Source: Candidatus Saccharimonadales bacterium
GTDB taxonomy: Bacteria > Patescibacteriota > Saccharimonadia > Saccharimonadales > UBA10212
Assembly: GCA_035717985.1 (NCBI GenBank)
Contig: DASTHW010000014.1
Span: forward strand, 81,691-145,690
Direction: 5' to 3'
DNA length: 64,000 bases
Both the position numbers and the translations under genes were made by a program. Position 1 is the first letter of the stretch, and each line of letters opens with the position of its first letter. The notes beneath the pieces are model-generated. The model was not told the DNA's origin and searched no databases. It worked only from the letters and a program-made list of their open reading frames with translations. Shown in pieces: positions 41,681-60,534 of the stretch.

Positions 41681-41929
41681 ATGGCTAAGAATATTACTGT
41701 CTTTACAACCAACACCTGCTCGTACTGTGTGATGGTGAAGCGCTTTTTGGATATGAAGGGGCAAAAATACGAGGTCGTAAATCTAGACGACAGCCCGGAG
41801 CGCCAGCAGGAAGTTTTAGCCATTTCTGGTGCGCTGACGGTGCCCGTCACGGTGGTGACTAAGGACGACGATTCGCAGGAAGTGGTGGTGGGTTACAACC
41901 TTTCCCGCCTCGCCCCCGCCGTCGCGTAA
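41681..41929 (+). CDS. Glutaredoxin-like protein (NrdH/YruB-type thioredoxin fold)
   Basis: 82 aa with redox motif CSYC in VFTTNTCSYCVMVKRFL, and TVPV (cis-Pro loop). GGAGGGG ribosome-binding site. Confidence 0.88.
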   Translation: MAKNITVFTTNTCSYCVMVKRFLDMKGQKYEVVNLDDSPERQQEVLAISGALTVPVTVVTKDDDSQEVVVGYNLSRLAPAVA

Positions 41930-42044
41930 CATTTTCGTGGCACTATGCGGCGTCATGGCCTCCATGTGCCGCGAGCAGTATTATTCCATACAGCTCGCTT
42001 GCATACTCGGTCATTCCTTGCCTAGCGCTCACGAAAGATGTTAC
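41926..42044. repeat. Structured element B: about 119 nt closed by an imperfect inverted repeat of about 15 nt; related to element A
   Basis: GTAACATTTTCGTG (41926-41939) pairs with CACGAAAGATGTTAC (42030-42044) with one bulged base. Inner hairpin GCGAGCaGTAT-tattcc-ATACaGCTCGC (41971-41998). Shares the CTCC(g/a)TG..GC.C, GTAT..ATAC, CTCG.TTGC and ATACT blocks with element A. Confidence 0.6.
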
Positions 42045-54454: not shown

Positions 54455-56428
54455 ATGGCTAAGTTCCATCTTAAGAGTGACTATAAGCCGCAGGGCGACC
54501 AGCCGGCGGCCATTGAAAAGCTGTCTGCCGGCCTAGATAAAGGCGAGAAGAACCAGGTTCTGCTAGGGGTTACCGGCTCTGGCAAGACTTTTACCATGGC
54601 CAATGTTATTGCCGGTGCCGGCAAGCCAACACTGGTGCTAAGCCATAACAAAACCCTGGCCGCCCAGCTTTATAATGAATTCCGCCAATTTTTTCCGGAC
54701 AATGCTGTACATTATTTTGTCAGTTACTTTGATTATTACCAGCCGGAAGCCTATATTCCGCGCAGTGATACCTATATTGAAAAAGACAGCGACATAAATG
54801 AAGAAATAGATCGTCTGCGCCATGCCGCGACCAGCGCGCTACTCTCGCGGCGTGACGTTATCATTGTGGCCAGCGTGTCCTGCATTTACGGCATAGGCTC
54901 GGTCGAGGATTACGGCAATATGGCCGTCCGCCTAAAAACCGGCGAGCGGCGCCTGCGTGATAAACTGCTGAGACTACTAACCGACATTCAATATCGGCGG
55001 AACGACATGGATTTTCACCGTAGCACCTTCCGGGTGCGCGGCGACGTGGTGGATATTTTCCCGGCGGGCGAAGAGGCCGCTTACCGTGTAGAATTTTTTG
55101 GCGACGAGCTGGAGCGGATTACCCAGATCAACCCATTGACCGGCGAAATTGAAGCTCAACTGAAGGAAAAGATTATTTTCCCAGGGAGTCACTACGTAAC
55201 GCCTAACGAAAAACTGCAAAGAGCGCTGGTAAAAATCAAGGAGGAGACCGAGGAGCGTCTAGCTTGGTTTAAAAAGCAGGGTAAACTACTGGAAGCCCAA
55301 AGGCTGGAACAGAGAGTTAACTTTGATGTCGAAATGCTAGAGCAAACCGGCTTCGTTAAAGGTATTGAAAACTACAGCCGCTATTTAACAAACCGTGAAG
55401 CCGGGGAGCAACCAGCTACACTACTGGATTATTTTCCAGATGATTATCTGATGTTTGTCGATGAAAGCCACATGACCATTCCGCAGGTACGCGGCATGTA
55501 CCACGGTGACCGCTCGCGTAAAGAAGTGCTGGTAGAGCACGGCTTCCGCCTGCCGTCAGCGCTGGATAACCGTCCGCTGACTTTTTCTGAATTTGAACGG
55601 CATATGAATAAAGTCATTTACGTCAGCGCTACGCCGGCGGAATTTGAGCTTGCTAGGAGTCCGAAACCTGTCCAGCAGGTGATTCGCCCCACCGGCCTGC
55701 TTGACCCAGTCATTGAAGTCCGGCCGGTAGACGGCCAAATTGACGATTTGATAGCCGAAATCCGTATCACTGTCGAGAAACATCAGCGGGTGCTGGTAAC
55801 TACCCTGACTAAACGAATGGCCGAAGACTTGAGCGAATACCTACGCGATTTAGACATCAAAGTGGCCTATATTCACAGTGAAATTGACACCCTGGAGCGG
55901 ACCGACATTTTGCGTGACCTGCGATTAGGAGTTTATGACGTGCTGGTGGGCATTAACTTACTGCGTGAGGGGCTGGACTTGCCGGAAGTCAGCCTAGTAG
56001 CGATTTTAGACGCCGATAAAGAAGGTTTTTTACGTAGCGAGCAAGCCCTGATTCAAACCGTTGGTCGGGCCGCCCGGCACGAAGAGGGCCGAGTCATTAT
56101 GTATGCCGACCATATTACCGGTAGCATGCAGAGGACTATAGATGAGACCGAAAGACGCCGAGGGGTTCAGGATAAATATAATAAAGAGCACGGCGTAACA
56201 CCTAAAGGTATTAGCCGCGAAGTGGGTGAGATGTTACCGCGCTCAGCCGAGGCTGAGGTAAGCGCCAGCCAGCGGGCCAAGCTGGATCTGCGTAAGATCC
56301 CTAAGGACGAATATAAACATTTAGTAAAGGACCTAACGTCGCAGATGGATCTGGCGGCCGCTAACCTGCAGTTTGAAAAGGCCGCCGACCTGCGGGATTT
56401 AATTGGCGAAATCAGAAGTAAGCTTTAG
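54455..56428 (+). CDS. uvrB: Excinuclease ABC subunit B
   Basis: [15 protein letters not shown] (Walker A), [14 protein letters not shown], helicase motifs, and a C-terminal UVR domain ([11 protein letters not shown]). Confidence 0.97.
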
Positions 56429-57559: not shown

Positions 57560-57618
57560 AGCAAAAAGCTAAATTACAACTTAAGGATTTTAACTTGAGG
57601 AGCGGCGCTTTAAGATGC

Positions 57619-57655
57619 AAGGGGCGGAGCTGGACGGCTCGCTCAAACGCCCCTT
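57619..57655 (-). terminator. GC-rich stem-loop downstream of the island operon (no U-tract)
   Basis: AAGGGGCG (57619-57626) pairs with CGCCCCTT (57648-57655), with a nested GAGC-tggacg-GCTC. It lies 17 nt after the minus-strand stop at 57672. Confidence 0.45.
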
Positions 57656-57671
57656 TCTGCCATGCAGGCGG

Positions 57672-57938
57672 CTACCTGGTCGTGTCGTGGAAGTACATCG
57701 CCATAGCGATCAGGACGGCGATGACGCACATCACGACTCCAAGAACGGCCTCGTCGAAGTTGTTGATGTGGCCGCCGTGATTCGGTATGCCGGTGAAGAA
57801 GCAGTATGCACCGGCCACGAACAGGCACAGGGTGCCGATGGTGACACCGCCGCCCTCGACGTCTGCGTCTGTCAGCTCATCCGACGGTTCGTCGGTAGAG
57901 ATTTCAGCCTGGGCGACTTCCATTTCGTTCACGTTCAT
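57672..57938 (-). CDS. Small membrane protein (88 aa; acidic N-terminus, two TM helices), high-GC codon usage
   Basis: ATG preceded by AGGAG. Strong G/C bias at codon position 3. TM candidates VTIGTLCLFVAGAYCFFTGI and AVLGVVMCVIAVLIAMAMYF. Confidence 0.6.
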   Translation of the reverse strand: MNVNEMEVAQAEISTDEPSDELTDADVEGGGVTIGTLCLFVAGAYCFFTGIPNHGGHINNFDEAVLGVVMCVIAVLIAMAMYFHDTTR

Positions 57939-57971
57939 CTCCTATCGAGGGTGCATCAGCTGGCCTGGCGC

Positions 57972-58109
57972 TTAGGCCAGCCAGCTGAAGAACCGGACCA
58001 GGCCGTAGACGGTGCCGCCGAAGGCGGCCAGTACGGCCACCACAGCGAAGAAGATGTCTCCGGTACCGGCCAGAGGCACGGGCTGTGCCTCCGTTTTCAC
58101 TTCGGTCAT
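57972..58109 (-). CDS. 45-aa single-TM peptide (not in ORF track), high-GC codon usage
   Basis: Translated by hand: MTEVKTEAQPVPLAGTGDIFFAVVAVLAAFGGTVYGLVRFFSWLA. GGAGG lies 6 nt upstream of ATG 58109. Third codon positions are almost all G/C. TAA stop at 57972-57974. Confidence 0.55.
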   Translation of the reverse strand: MTEVKTEAQPVPLAGTGDIFFAVVAVLAAFGGTVYGLVRFFSWLA

Positions 58110-58266
58110 GCTTGCCTCCGGGTTCGAAAGTTTCGCTCCTCAAGTTCTTCGGCTCCAAGCGGAGCCAGAATGAACTCCGCGAGCACGACGCCCAAATTGT
58201 TATCAAAAATACCGCTGTTGTCAAGAATGGTATAGAGGTCTGACAGGCGGTATAATTGCTATAAAT

Positions 58267-58557: not shown

Positions 58558-58648
58558 TGCATTTCGTCCTAAGGGAAAAGATTAGCACCGCTTCAGCTTT
58601 AGCTGAATTTGGATTCATTCCAAAAGGTGCGTTGAGGAAAACCGGGGC

Positions 58649-58672
58649 CCCCACAAAATTAATTTTGTGGGG
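58649..58672. repeat. Perfect 24-nt palindrome in the gatC-gatA spacer
   Basis: CCCCACAAAATTAATTTTGTGGGG. It is preceded by further small hairpins (TTCAGC-ttta-GCTGAA, TGGA-ttcat-TCCA) enclosed by GCACC/GGTGC. Confidence 0.8.
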
Positions 58673-58714
58673 TATAGGTACCGCAGGTTGTCCTCAAAAG
58701 CCGGAGGCGCAGTA

Positions 58715-60121
58715 ATGGATTGGCCAAAAATTGCCGGTATTGCTAGCGCTGTCCAAAAAGGCCAGCTCAAAGCTGTTGATTTAGTTAAAAGGTCTCTCAC
58801 AGCTGTAGCTGAAAATAAGGAGTATGGCGCCATAATCTCAACCTTAGAGGAAAGAGCTTTAGCCCGGGCGGCTGAGATCGACAAAAAGCCGGCTGGCCGC
58901 CTGGCCGGTGTACCGTTTATTGCTAAAGATAATTTTCTAACACTGGATGGTAAAACCACTGCCGCTAGTAATATTTTGAAACCGTTTGAGGCGCCATATC
59001 AGGCCACGGCTATCGAGCGTCTGGAAGCAGAAGGCGCCATCTGCGTGGCCAAAGCCAATTTGGACGCCTTTGCCCACGGCTCATCGACTGAAAATAGCGA
59101 TTTTTTTGTTACCAAAAACCCGCATGATAAAACCAGGGTGCCGGGCGGCTCATCCGGCGGCTCGGCGGCGGCTGTAGCTCTTAGCATTGCCCCATTTGCT
59201 CTGGGTACCGACACTGGCGGCTCGGTGCGCTTGCCGGCCGGCTTTTGCGGCGTGGTTGGATATAAGCCCAGCTACGGGCTGGTTAGCCGTAGCGGCGTAG
59301 TGGCTATGGCCAGCAGTACGGATGTTATCGGCCCGCTAGCGGCTTCGGTAGAAGATGCGGCATTGGTTCTGGATGTAATGAGCGGCGAGGACGAGCTGGA
59401 TTCTACGACGATTGAGCGCGACTCTAAGCCATATACCGAGCTTGGCTTTGATATTAAGGGTAAAAAAATTGGTCTGGTTCACGAATATTTTAGTGAAGGC
59501 TTAGACGCCGGCGTGCGGGCACAAATAGACGCCGCAGTAGATAAGCTAAAGGCCGCCGGCGCCGTAGTTAGCGAAGTTAGCTTGCCCAGTGTGCCGCTGG
59601 CCTTAGCCGTTTATTACATAATCTGCCCGGCGGAAGTCTCCTCGAACCTAGCCCGTTATGACGGCCAGCGCTATGGTCATTTTGCGCCCGAGGCTAAAGA
59701 TTTAACCGAAAGCTATGAGCTGGCGCGGGAGCAGGGGTTTGGCGCCGAAGCCAAGCGGCGGATTATGATCGGCGCTCACGTGCTGTCCAGCGGCTACTAT
59801 GACGCTTACTATAAAAAAGCCTTGCTGGTGCGGACTAAAATCCGCGCCGAACTAGCTGAGGCTTTTAAAAATGTCGATTTTCTAGCTGGCCCCACCTCGC
59901 CAACTACAGCTTTTAAGATTGGTGCTAAGACGGCCGACCCCCTGCAGATGTACATGACAGACATAATGACAGTAGCCGCTAATGTGACTGGCAATCCGGC
60001 AATTAGTGTGCCGGCAGGGCAAGCCGCCGGCTTGCCGGTGGGCCTGCAGATAATTGGCGACTACGGGGACGACCGCCAGCTGTTGGCGCTAGCAAAAACA
60101 TATGAGGATTTGAATAAATGA
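58715..60121 (+). CDS. gatA: Asp-tRNA(Asn)/Glu-tRNA(Gln) amidotransferase subunit A
   Basis: ATG 58715 after GGAGG; the track ORF extension from 58667 crosses the palindrome. Amidase signature GGSSGGSAAAVA and GTDTGGSVRLPA. Confidence 0.95.
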   Translation: MDWPKIAGIASAVQKGQLKAVDLVKRSLTAVAENKEYGAIISTLEERALARAAEIDKKPAGRLAGVPFIAKDNFLTLDGKTTAASNILKPFEAPYQATAIERLEAEGAICVAKANLDAFAHGSSTENSDFFVTKNPHDKTRVPGGSSGGSAAAVALSIAPFALGTDTGGSVRLPAGFCGVVGYKPSYGLVSRSGVVAMASSTDVIGPLAASVEDAALVLDVMSGEDELDSTTIERDSKPYTELGFDIKGKKIGLVHEYFSEGLDAGVRAQIDAAVDKLKAAGAVVSEVSLPSVPLALAVYYIICPAEVSSNLARYDGQRYGHFAPEAKDLTESYELAREQGFGAEAKRRIMIGAHVLSSGYYDAYYKKALLVRTKIRAELAEAFKNVDFLAGPTSPTTAFKIGAKTADPLQMYMTDIMTVAANVTGNPAISVPAGQAAGLPVGLQIIGDYGDDRQLLALAKTYEDLNK

Positions 60122-60534
60122 TAATCTTCCTAATCGCTATCATTGCCTTTGGCATTTTGGTGTTGGCCATGCTTGCCCGGCTAGCACCACGCCTAGGCTG
60201 GATACCGGAGAGGGGCCTTAACCAGCAGTATTTTTATGACAAATGGCTGGAACTACTGGCGCGGGTTAAGACGCCAGAGGGCATGGTGCTAGCCGTCATT
60301 GACGCCGATAAACTATTGGACGAAGCCTTAAGGAAAAAGCGCTTCCGCGGTAAAACCATGGGCGAGCGGCTGGTTAGTGCCCAGCGGTCACTGTCTGACA
60401 ACGACGCCGTTTGGTATGCCCATAAGCTACGCAATCGGCTGGTGCATGAGCCTAATGTCAAGCTCAGAAAAACTGAGGCTCAAAACGCCCTAGCTGGTTT
60501 TAAGCGAGGTCTGCATGACCTGGGGGCTCTATGA
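60118..60534 (+). CDS. Membrane-anchored helical protein with an R-N-x3-H (HEPN/DUF4145-like) motif, embedded in gatCAB
   Basis: N-terminal TM MIIFLIAIIAFGILVLAMLA. The helical domain ends in AVWYAHKLRNRLVHEPN. ATGA overlaps with both the gatA stop and the gatB start. Confidence 0.6.
   Translation: MIIFLIAIIAFGILVLAMLARLAPRLGWIPERGLNQQYFYDKWLELLARVKTPEGMVLAVIDADKLLDEALRKKRFRGKTMGERLVSAQRSLSDNDAVWYAHKLRNRLVHEPNVKLRKTEAQNALAGFKRGLHDLGAL

Follow-up and report, generated by a model that had tools for sequence, protein, structure and literature searches.

The window analysed here is a 64,000-nt stretch of contig DASTHW010000014.1, which belongs to a Candidatus Saccharimonadales metagenome-assembled genome (MAG), in agreement with the Saccharibacteria-type genome suspected in the original prediction. 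Near 58 kb, between a trypsin-like protease gene and gatCAB, lies the subject of this study, a short island of high G+C content that had been described as bracketed by a perfect 13-bp inverted repeat, as encoding small membrane peptides and as recently acquired. The compositional part of this description was reproduced exactly: the island core (57661-58140) holds 292 G+C in 480 nt (60.8%) and the 60-mers flanking the island hold 23 and 24, in a window of 50.06% GC. The highest GC content of any 480-nt segment in the 64 kb belongs to the one beginning at 57621 (62.1%; mean 50.1%, sd 3.5%), and the composition shifts abruptly at 57.6 and 58.2 kb. The repeat was likewise found as described, AACTTGAGGAGCG (57592-57604) being the exact reverse complement of CGCTCCTCAAGTT (58134-58146). 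It extends to 20 nt at 85% complementarity, and its 12-mer has no further copy in the window (0.16 expected by chance).

The island carries two minus-strand open reading frames (ORFs), ORF45 and ORF88, in what appears to be a transcription unit of their own, hereafter called the cassette. Its features are listed in the predicted direction of transcription.

58196..58224, minus strand: sigma-70-like cassette promoter (TTGACA, 17 nt, AACAAT), 10/12 matches in a promoter scan
58149..58188, minus strand: predicted 5'-terminal stem-loop of the leader, with the hairpin GGCUCC-GCUU-GGAGCC at 58151-58166, in both the minimum free energy (MFE) and the centroid structure
58134..58146, minus strand: 5' arm (right arm of the inverted repeat), RNA AACUUGAGGAGCG, exact complement of 57592-57604
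58115..58130, minus strand: ribosome-binding site of ORF45, GGAGG at 58119..58115, 5 nt ahead of the ATG
57972..58109, minus strand: ORF45, 45 aa, one predicted transmembrane helix, acidic N-terminus, Arg and aromatic residues at the C-terminus
57950..57994, minus strand: predicted intercistronic stem-loop over the ORF45 stop codon, an inverted repeat of 15 nt with 87% complementarity, in the MFE structure
57672..57938, minus strand: ORF88, acidic N-terminal tail and two predicted transmembrane helices
57621..57653, minus strand: GC-rich 3' hairpin (GGGGCG...CGCCCC) after the last stop, no U-tract, from sequence and MFE structure
57592..57604, minus strand: 3' arm (left arm of the inverted repeat), RNA CGCUCCUCAAGUU
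57565..57579, no strand given: candidate relic of a uvrB 3' end, AAAGCTAAATTACAA, between the protease stop codon and the 3' arm

The cassette promoter faces away from the gatC promoter (TATAAT, 58251-58256, plus strand), the two standing back-to-back. Transcription is predicted to start near 58189, with the 5' arm lying about 45 nt after this start and about 25 nt ahead of the first start codon. In the MFE structure the GGAGG of ORF45 falls in a small local hairpin with CUUUCG (58130..58125), and its unpaired probability is 0.39. The GC-rich stem lacking a U-tract that had been noticed after the last stop is the 3' hairpin of the list.

Both ORFs exist where they had been placed and are annotated as hypothetical proteins in the MAG (ORF45, VFP35_03285; ORF88, VFP35_03280). 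Their G+C content at the third codon position (GC3) is 0.80 each, compared with 0.533±0.044 and a maximum of 0.62 among 63 host ORFs, an outlier by about 6 sd, and they are the only window ORFs of at least 40 aa with a GC3 of 0.8 or higher. A composition foreign to the host genes and unlike that of every neighbouring gene is thereby confirmed, but the wording that the third position is nearly saturated with G/C goes too far at 80%. GC by codon position (0.65/0.46/0.80 in ORF45; 0.58-0.65, 0.37-0.46 and 0.80 across both ORFs) has the profile of real coding sequence, and ORF45 was called as a gene by both NCBI and Logan. For ORF88 the frame stands but the AGGAG-led ATG start is doubtful, because AGGAG abuts the ATG and a GTG at 57932 has the normal 6-nt spacing; the start is probably this GTG, which the Logan gene call also uses and which gives a product of 86 aa.

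AlphaFold2 returned only helices, a single one in ORF45 (residues 16-44, pLDDT 83) and two in ORF88 (34-50 and 61-87, pLDDT 64), consistent with the small membrane peptides proposed earlier. Searches of Rfam, Pfam, PHROGs, NCBIfam, PADLOC and PDB sequences gave nothing at or above cut-off; for ORF45 this applies to the curated cut-offs of Pfam, PHROGs, NCBIfam and PADLOC, and the best Rfam covariance-model matches (E 0.7-3) were far under the gathering scores. A word-indexed search of about 5.8 billion protein clusters found no ORF45 homologue outside its own genome's sequences. The likeness to Pf3-type inovirus major coat proteins, holins or type I toxins did not hold up, as each lacks its defining context or partners. 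The neighbours of a supposed coat protein gene are uvrB, the trypsin-like protease gene and gatCAB, with no PHROG match and no phage DNA or protein match, and the supposed holin has no lysis gene nearby and no Pfam or PHROG holin match. ORF45 also contains LAGTG followed by a hydrophobic helix and Arg, but only 13 residues precede the motif and a signal peptide is lacking, and it was rejected as an LPXTG/LAXTG sortase substrate; it scores 11.1 bits against Pfam Gram_pos_anchor (cut-off 20, E 0.41).

The locus was compared across GTDB species genomes and Joint Genome Institute (JGI) metagenomes with GatA and GatC as synteny anchors; individual loci carry L numbers below. As an anchor the protease was of no use, having no close relative in the GTDB genomes and only distant homologues (at most 43% identity) in unrelated contexts. 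The general arrangement in the clade is uvrB directly followed by gatC, and at about 18 loci, including the closest GTDB relatives L009, L010 and L011 (GatA 74-75% identical), the gap between the two genes measures only 29-66 bp (up to 89 bp). Judging from this comparison the island is accessory, because close relatives join uvrB to gatC by 29-66 bp, and the empty site in relatives that had been suggested as a check was thus found many times over. At the remaining loci the two genes are separated by inserts of 0.3-4.6 kb that differ in what they contain. That of the window consists of the protease gene (GC3 0.49, host-like) and the island.

Among the inserts, 15 cassettes resembling that of the window (counting the window and two in tandem in L087) and four more (L098, L107, L117, L146) make up a family. 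Each is bracketed by a perfect 9-14 bp inverted repeat, and its genes lie on the strand opposite uvrB and gatC with a GC3 of 0.60-0.86. The layout runs from a promoter through a leader of 29-61 nt, the 5' arm, a spacer of about 20-37 nt, a strong ribosome-binding site and one or two ORFs to a GC-rich hairpin, which lacks a U-tract in all members, and the 3' arm, beyond which lies the uvrB terminator region. A promoter of the form TTGA[CA]N, 16-18 nt, [TAG]AnnnT occurs in 15/15 cassettes, in every case 29-61 nt upstream of the 5' arm, which puts the arms inside the predicted transcript. In the 14 of 15 cassettes that adjoin gatC, the promoter begins 31-46 nt from the gatC ATG and the arm nearer to gatC stops 111-136 nt short of the gatC start.

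The arms themselves fall into at least seven classes, namely AACTTGAGGAGCG, TAGCAGTCAAGCG, GCGATAAAGCAGAG, GGTAGAGCAAT, GGGTAGGGCAAT, GCAGAGTAGTG, AGCAGAGTTAA and others, with complementarity kept between the two arms of each cassette. None of 22 other inserts at the hotspot, all of host-like GC3, has a bracketing repeat. The perfect repeat that first drew attention to the island turns out to identify a broader type of cassette that has apparently not been described before; a literature search gave no relevant description of a Saccharibacteria hotspot. Of the arm classes, the 5' arm of L007 (GCGATAAAGCAGAG) has a 12-nt complement in the 3' untranslated region (UTR) of L109, which belongs to another class, and this hints that arm classes arise by a register shift of the pairing along related UTRs.

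About 13 of the cassettes carry soluble proteins of 90-156 aa. The cargo consists of orphans without Pfam domains that are mostly unrelated to one another, the only related pairs being ORF88 and P0010, to which a 90-aa ORF of L087 is weakly related, and the cargo of L096 and L109. Ala-rich C-terminal tails (...EAAAA, ...MAAAS, ...IAAVA, ...ELVAA, ...IAAAA, ...DLIAA, ...KPAAA) are seen on the soluble cargo of L007, L096, L102, L106, L108, L109 and L142. These tails recall C-terminal degradation tags, and the cargo may be short-lived.

P0010 (76 aa) was the only ORF88 homologue in an exhaustive HMMER search of 1.84 billion representatives (37% identity, E 2.7e-5), and pairwise BLASTP gives 33% identity over 70 residues (E 4e-13). 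It is encoded on three JGI contigs from Saccharimonadales (L087-L089), between gatC and uvrB, with transcription leading away from gatC. Next to it comes a 90-aa paralogue; the L087 cassette encodes two two-helix proteins and has no counterpart of ORF45. In a three-way alignment the loop motif of ORF88, G-x-Y-C-F...G-I...G-G-H-I-x-N...E, is common to P0010. The GC3 of the L087 cassette genes is 0.71-0.80, versus 0.51-0.55 for the flanking uvrB and gatC.

This two-gene unit is flanked by AACTTGAGGAGC and GCTCCTCAAGTT, and the window and L087/L089 agree at all 26 nt of the arms, against a divergence of about 27% in the adjoining UTR. The L087 promoter, TTGACA-17-GACAAT, is orthologous to the TTGACA-17-AACAAT of the window. 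The promoter, leader hairpin, ribosome-binding-site region and 3' hairpin can all be aligned with L087 at 72-75%, and the proteins are only about 35% identical. In the 3' stem (GGGGCA...UGCCCC in L087) one pair differs from that of the window with both strands changed, and the loop part CCAGCUC is kept. The repeat is thus no pair of element ends, for the promoter and leader, which are conserved, fall beyond it and homology carries on across either arm.

Pairing between the arms was assessed by complementarity, covariation and folding. The longest duplex between cognate 5' and 3' regions has a mean length of 11.5 nt, versus 6.8 nt for non-cognate and about 6 nt for shuffled partners. In a covariation alignment (A4) anchored on the common AGAG/CUCU core, 13 of 18 pairs have changed on both sides (for example C-G/U-A 8:4, U-A/C-G 7:4 and A-U/G-C/U-A 4:4:1), giving a score of 0.359 compared with 0.176±0.027 for shuffles, none of which scored as high in 500, and 0.05-0.125 for slid controls. 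Folding of the putative transcripts pairs the arms in 15/15 MFE structures, with a probability of at least 0.93 in 14, and those of the window pair at 13/13 positions with a pair probability of 0.98. Whole-transcript folding z-scores range from -3.2 to -9.8 (window -5.0 to -6.5), versus -1.1±1.5 (minimum -3.9) for 20 host genes, and extended imperfect 5'/3' duplexes of 14-32 bp are predicted. At the sequence level, these comparisons establish the hotspot, the family, its common layout and selection for arm complementarity.

On balance, we lean towards reading the island as a self-contained accessory cassette whose mRNA is closed by a predicted long-range 5'-3' helix. More tentatively, soil Saccharimonadales may carry at uvrB|gatC a previously undescribed class of interchangeable cassettes, distinct in composition and each equipped with a strong promoter and orphan cargo of its own, with a co-varying UTR helix that governs message lifetime, processing or translation. 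With similar reserve, the window cassette can be taken as the membrane-peptide variant of this class. We infer that the pairing acts in RNA. The cassette's own sigma-70-like promoter would produce a minus-strand bicistronic mRNA of about 600 nt for ORF45 and ORF88, and the 13-bp repeat would supply the two strands of a helix joining the 5' leader to the 3' trailer beyond the GC-rich hairpin. Such a closing helix would place the entire coding region in one loop. The effect of closure would be post-transcriptional: the mRNA may be shielded from decay, the helix may form a double-stranded processing site of the RNase III type, or both, and translation is possibly tuned.

Several points weigh against this closed-message reading. 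The arms were located by complementarity, which makes the pairing statistics partly circular; what stands independently of this circularity is the regular position of the arms, the negative control on real sequences and the covariation beside the conserved core. The window's own arm class has two instances with identical arms and consequently no covariation within the class. The helix is near-purely Watson-Crick, with G·U as frequent as A·C (2 vs 2 in the core), and the duplex energies of the sense and antisense strands are equal. The wobble signature usual for a strand-specific RNA helix is therefore absent, which leaves room for selection at the DNA level. The accessibility of the ribosome-binding site varies and is not consistently low across the family, so that silencing of translation is not a trait of the cassettes at large. 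No clear terminator was found beyond the 3' arm in the window, and the transcription start, the 3' end and the arm pairing are themselves predictions. Nor does the reading account for the raised GC3 of the whole family, RNA structure in the coding sequence having been rejected as its cause on the ordinary z-scores of the coding sequences alone (-2.1 and -1.7).

Exchange of cassettes among the lineages of Saccharimonadales would proceed through homologous recombination within the core genes on either side. This mode of exchange is supported by the strain variants L087 and L088, which have 8 differences, all in a 118-nt stretch of gatC (L087 145-262), and 0 in the 1,070 nt of the island, a pattern that resembles a recombination breakpoint within gatC. 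It is also supported by the putative uvrB-end relic. The sequence AAAGCTAAATTACAA, immediately after the protease stop codon and short of the 3' arm, matches the true uvrB ends of L100 and L104 (AAAGCTAAATTGTAA), and the window's own uvrB ends differently, in AGAAGTAAGCTTTAG at 56428. The match is short and A/T-rich, and only suggests that AAAGCTAAATTACAA is the relic of a foreign uvrB 3' end of Saccharimonadales type. Equally suggestive is the implication that the cassette formerly lay directly beside uvrB, which is its position in relatives, and that the protease gene arrived or was rearranged on a separate occasion.

Among the alternatives, a type I toxin-antitoxin-like locus survives best, and we consider it unlikely. 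ORF45 would be the toxin, the 5'-3' pairing and the hairpin at the ribosome-binding site would hold the full-length mRNA inert until processed, and an antisense RNA would act as antitoxin. With 45 aa and a single predicted helix, ORF45 would pass as a small hydrophobic peptide (below about 60 aa), and the predicted 5'-3' long-distance interaction, the 5' stem-loop and the anti-Shine-Dalgarno (anti-SD) hairpin over GGAGG are all descriptors in T1TAdb (PMC8594479). The unpaired probability of 0.39 nevertheless falls short of tight sequestration and accessibility differs among the cassettes. An antisense RNA could end only at a weakly terminator-like plus-strand hairpin with a short T-run (58073-58091), opposite the 5' coding region of ORF45, and the promoter scan found no promoter-like site for it on the opposite strand within the cassette. 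The third micro-ORF of the original prediction (58195..58106), which ends in an ATGA overlap with the ORF45 start and would fit such a locus, is indeed an open frame but hardly a gene: it has no ribosome-binding site, has a GC3 of 0.57, is not conserved in the homologous locus, and starts at or before the predicted transcription start. Nor does a toxin form the core of the locus, as the L087 cassette does without ORF45 and about 13 cassettes with the same closing helix encode soluble proteins; tandem copies were also not seen.

That the complementarity acts in DNA and is tied to cassette gain or loss at the hotspot, for instance as a stem in single-stranded DNA during uptake or replication, likewise strikes us as unlikely. 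It would account for the lack of a G·U excess, for the strict link of bracketing repeats to compositionally distinct cassettes and for the absence of such repeats from the other inserts. A stem closing a loop of 400-900 nt is implausible in duplex DNA, however, the arms do not sit at the boundaries of the variable segments, and no associated enzyme was found.

Recent import from a high-GC actinobacterial host, the explanation first offered, is very unlikely; the 13-bp repeat would then be either incidental or the terminal inverted repeats of some small mobile element. Actinobacteria are the hosts of Saccharibacteria, the closest relatives have empty sites, and the island has 61% GC and a GC3 of 0.80 within a 50%-GC genome. 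But the high GC3 is a property of the cassette family rather than the mark of one recent transfer, because at least 14 other hotspot cassettes are equally GC3-rich. Protein, phage, plasmid, six-frame and viral-contig searches revealed no homologue beyond Saccharimonadales, where the sole one sits at the same locus with identical arms. Outside Saccharimonadales, neither ORF had a match in about 5.8 billion clusters or 1.84 billion representatives, searches in which unannotated small ORFs of actinobacterial genomes were not scanned. Phage and plasmid blastn and tblastn gave nothing beyond one 32-nt chance match. The viral_contigs collection yielded neither the 3' hairpin-arm pattern nor the sister-class 3' motif, and the 5' leader-arm pattern was unmatched in metagenome_contigs, a collection that does not include L087-89. 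There are no target-site duplications and no transposase, and a transposon or miniature inverted-repeat transposable element was rejected: the promoter and leader lie outside the repeat, the flanks TTTT and CTTC are not duplicated, and the repeat occurs as a single copy in 64 kb. The putative uvrB-end relic of Saccharimonadales type beside the cassette and the homology that continues past the arms also speak against an imported element.

No more probable is an invertible DNA switch, in which an invertase would flip the coding segment relative to a fixed outside promoter and so turn expression on or off. The promoter does lie outside the repeats with the whole coding unit between them, GAGGAG in both arms would offer a sequence resembling a ribosome-binding site in either orientation, and a purely Watson-Crick repeat without wobble suits a role in DNA. 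Yet the ORFs are in promoter sense in all assemblies (window, L001, L087-89 and 13 other loci), the arms are short (9-14 bp) and differ widely among close relatives, which a sequence-specific recombinase would not tolerate, and no recombinase gene is nearby. The 206-codon plus-strand ORF206 (57615-58235) is likewise not conserved in L087; it was rejected as an antisense shadow of ORF45 and ORF88, its first codon position coinciding with their third. Finally, the sharp composition change at 57.6 and 58.2 kb would suit a high-GC fragment wrongly joined into the contig, a chimera whose probability is close to negligible because the Logan assembly of SRR25158356, perhaps built from the MAG's own reads and independent only in its assembler, is 100% identical across both island junctions, and many unrelated assemblies show the same architecture at the same locus.

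Pairing of the 5' UTR with the 3' UTR within one bacterial mRNA is established for icaR of Staphylococcus aureus (PMC3868564). The cassettes share with icaR a pyrimidine-rich 3'-UTR segment (CUCCUC) that would pair with a purine-rich 5'-UTR segment (GAGGAG), a duplex that is a plausible RNase III substrate, and a long, structured 3' UTR. They differ in that the icaR motif pairs with a functional Shine-Dalgarno sequence, whereas in the cassettes the paired 5' segment precedes the real ribosome-binding site by about 15 nt. They also form a family of interchangeable units with co-varying arms at one hotspot in a candidate phyla radiation (CPR) lineage, their pairing being predicted from sequence. 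A 5'-3' long-distance interaction is also known from type I toxin mRNAs (hok/Sok, aapA1/IsoA1; PMC8594479, PMC5416894), which the window cassette resembles in its small hydrophobic peptide ORF, its highly structured mRNA, the 5' stem-loop, the predicted end pairing and the anti-SD hairpin. Unlike these mRNAs it is bicistronic and has no detectable antisense RNA, its orthologous cassette lacks the 45-aa peptide, and most family cassettes encode soluble proteins.

Phage morons and other accessory hotspots have in common with the cassettes an autonomous promoter and 3' structure, a composition unlike that of the neighbours, diverse orphan cargo, a location flanked by conserved genes and an empty site in relatives. 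However, the cassettes are chromosomal in a CPR bacterium, have no phage context, and each carries a closing repeat, which morons lack. In the stalks processed by RNase III in rRNA precursors and T7 early mRNAs, flanking sequences also pair into a stem enclosing a long RNA; in the cassettes the enclosed RNA is a protein-coding message, and processing at the stem would be an analogy. Invertons share the short inverted repeats that bracket a functional unit beside a fixed element, but the cassettes occur in one orientation only, have no invertase, and vary freely in arm sequence.

To our knowledge, whole-message 5'-3' closure in bacteria has so far been known from a few single genes only. What appears new in the cassettes, on the best-supported reading, is that this pairing principle extends across a cassette family. 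If the pairing acts in RNA, the family provides at least 19 natural instances of whole-message closure with at least seven arm sequences, in a lineage of the candidate phyla where gene regulation has hardly been studied, and the co-varying arms make closure directly testable with compensatory mutants. The hotspot shows ultra-small epibiont genomes trading orphan genes between lineages without mobile-element machinery, and the membrane peptides and Ala-tailed soluble cargo are candidates for strain-specific functions. The high GC3 of the family also calls for caution in genome scans, where a compositional island need not mean a donor from a foreign phylum.

The hotspot also holds unrelated, host-like cargo (L007-L025, L090-L169). 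Among it are a repetitive protein of surface type with 1,478 aa (L023), a block of three genes (L018), plus-strand genes of 290 aa (L111, L113, L114) and minus-strand genes of 310-440 aa (L012, L014, L097, L118, L124, L126, L134).

Elsewhere in the window, an 82-aa glutaredoxin/NrdH-like ORF with a CSYC motif (41681-41929, plus strand) occupies a 730-nt gap upstream of a thioredoxin-reductase-like gene. A GC3-rich 49-codon minus-strand frame (41816-41965) was rejected as the shadow of this plus-strand gene.

Two features of the neighbouring gatCAB operon deserve mention. The distance from gatC to the GatA-homologous start is about 157 nt (58558-58714), compared with 2-13 nt in most close relatives and about 100-150 nt in L012, L015 and L018. 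This spacer holds a 52-codon ORF with TAATG overlaps to both neighbours and a perfect 24-nt palindrome, CCCCACAAAATTAATTTTGTGGGG (58649-58672). Between gatA and gatB, and overlapping each of them by 4 nt, lies the gene of a 138-aa protein (60118-60534) that has a hydrophobic helix at its N-terminus and lacks a Pfam domain. It has been kept there in nearly all Saccharimonadales relatives examined (29-74% identity) and may serve the amidotransferase operon as an additional, clade-specific partner.

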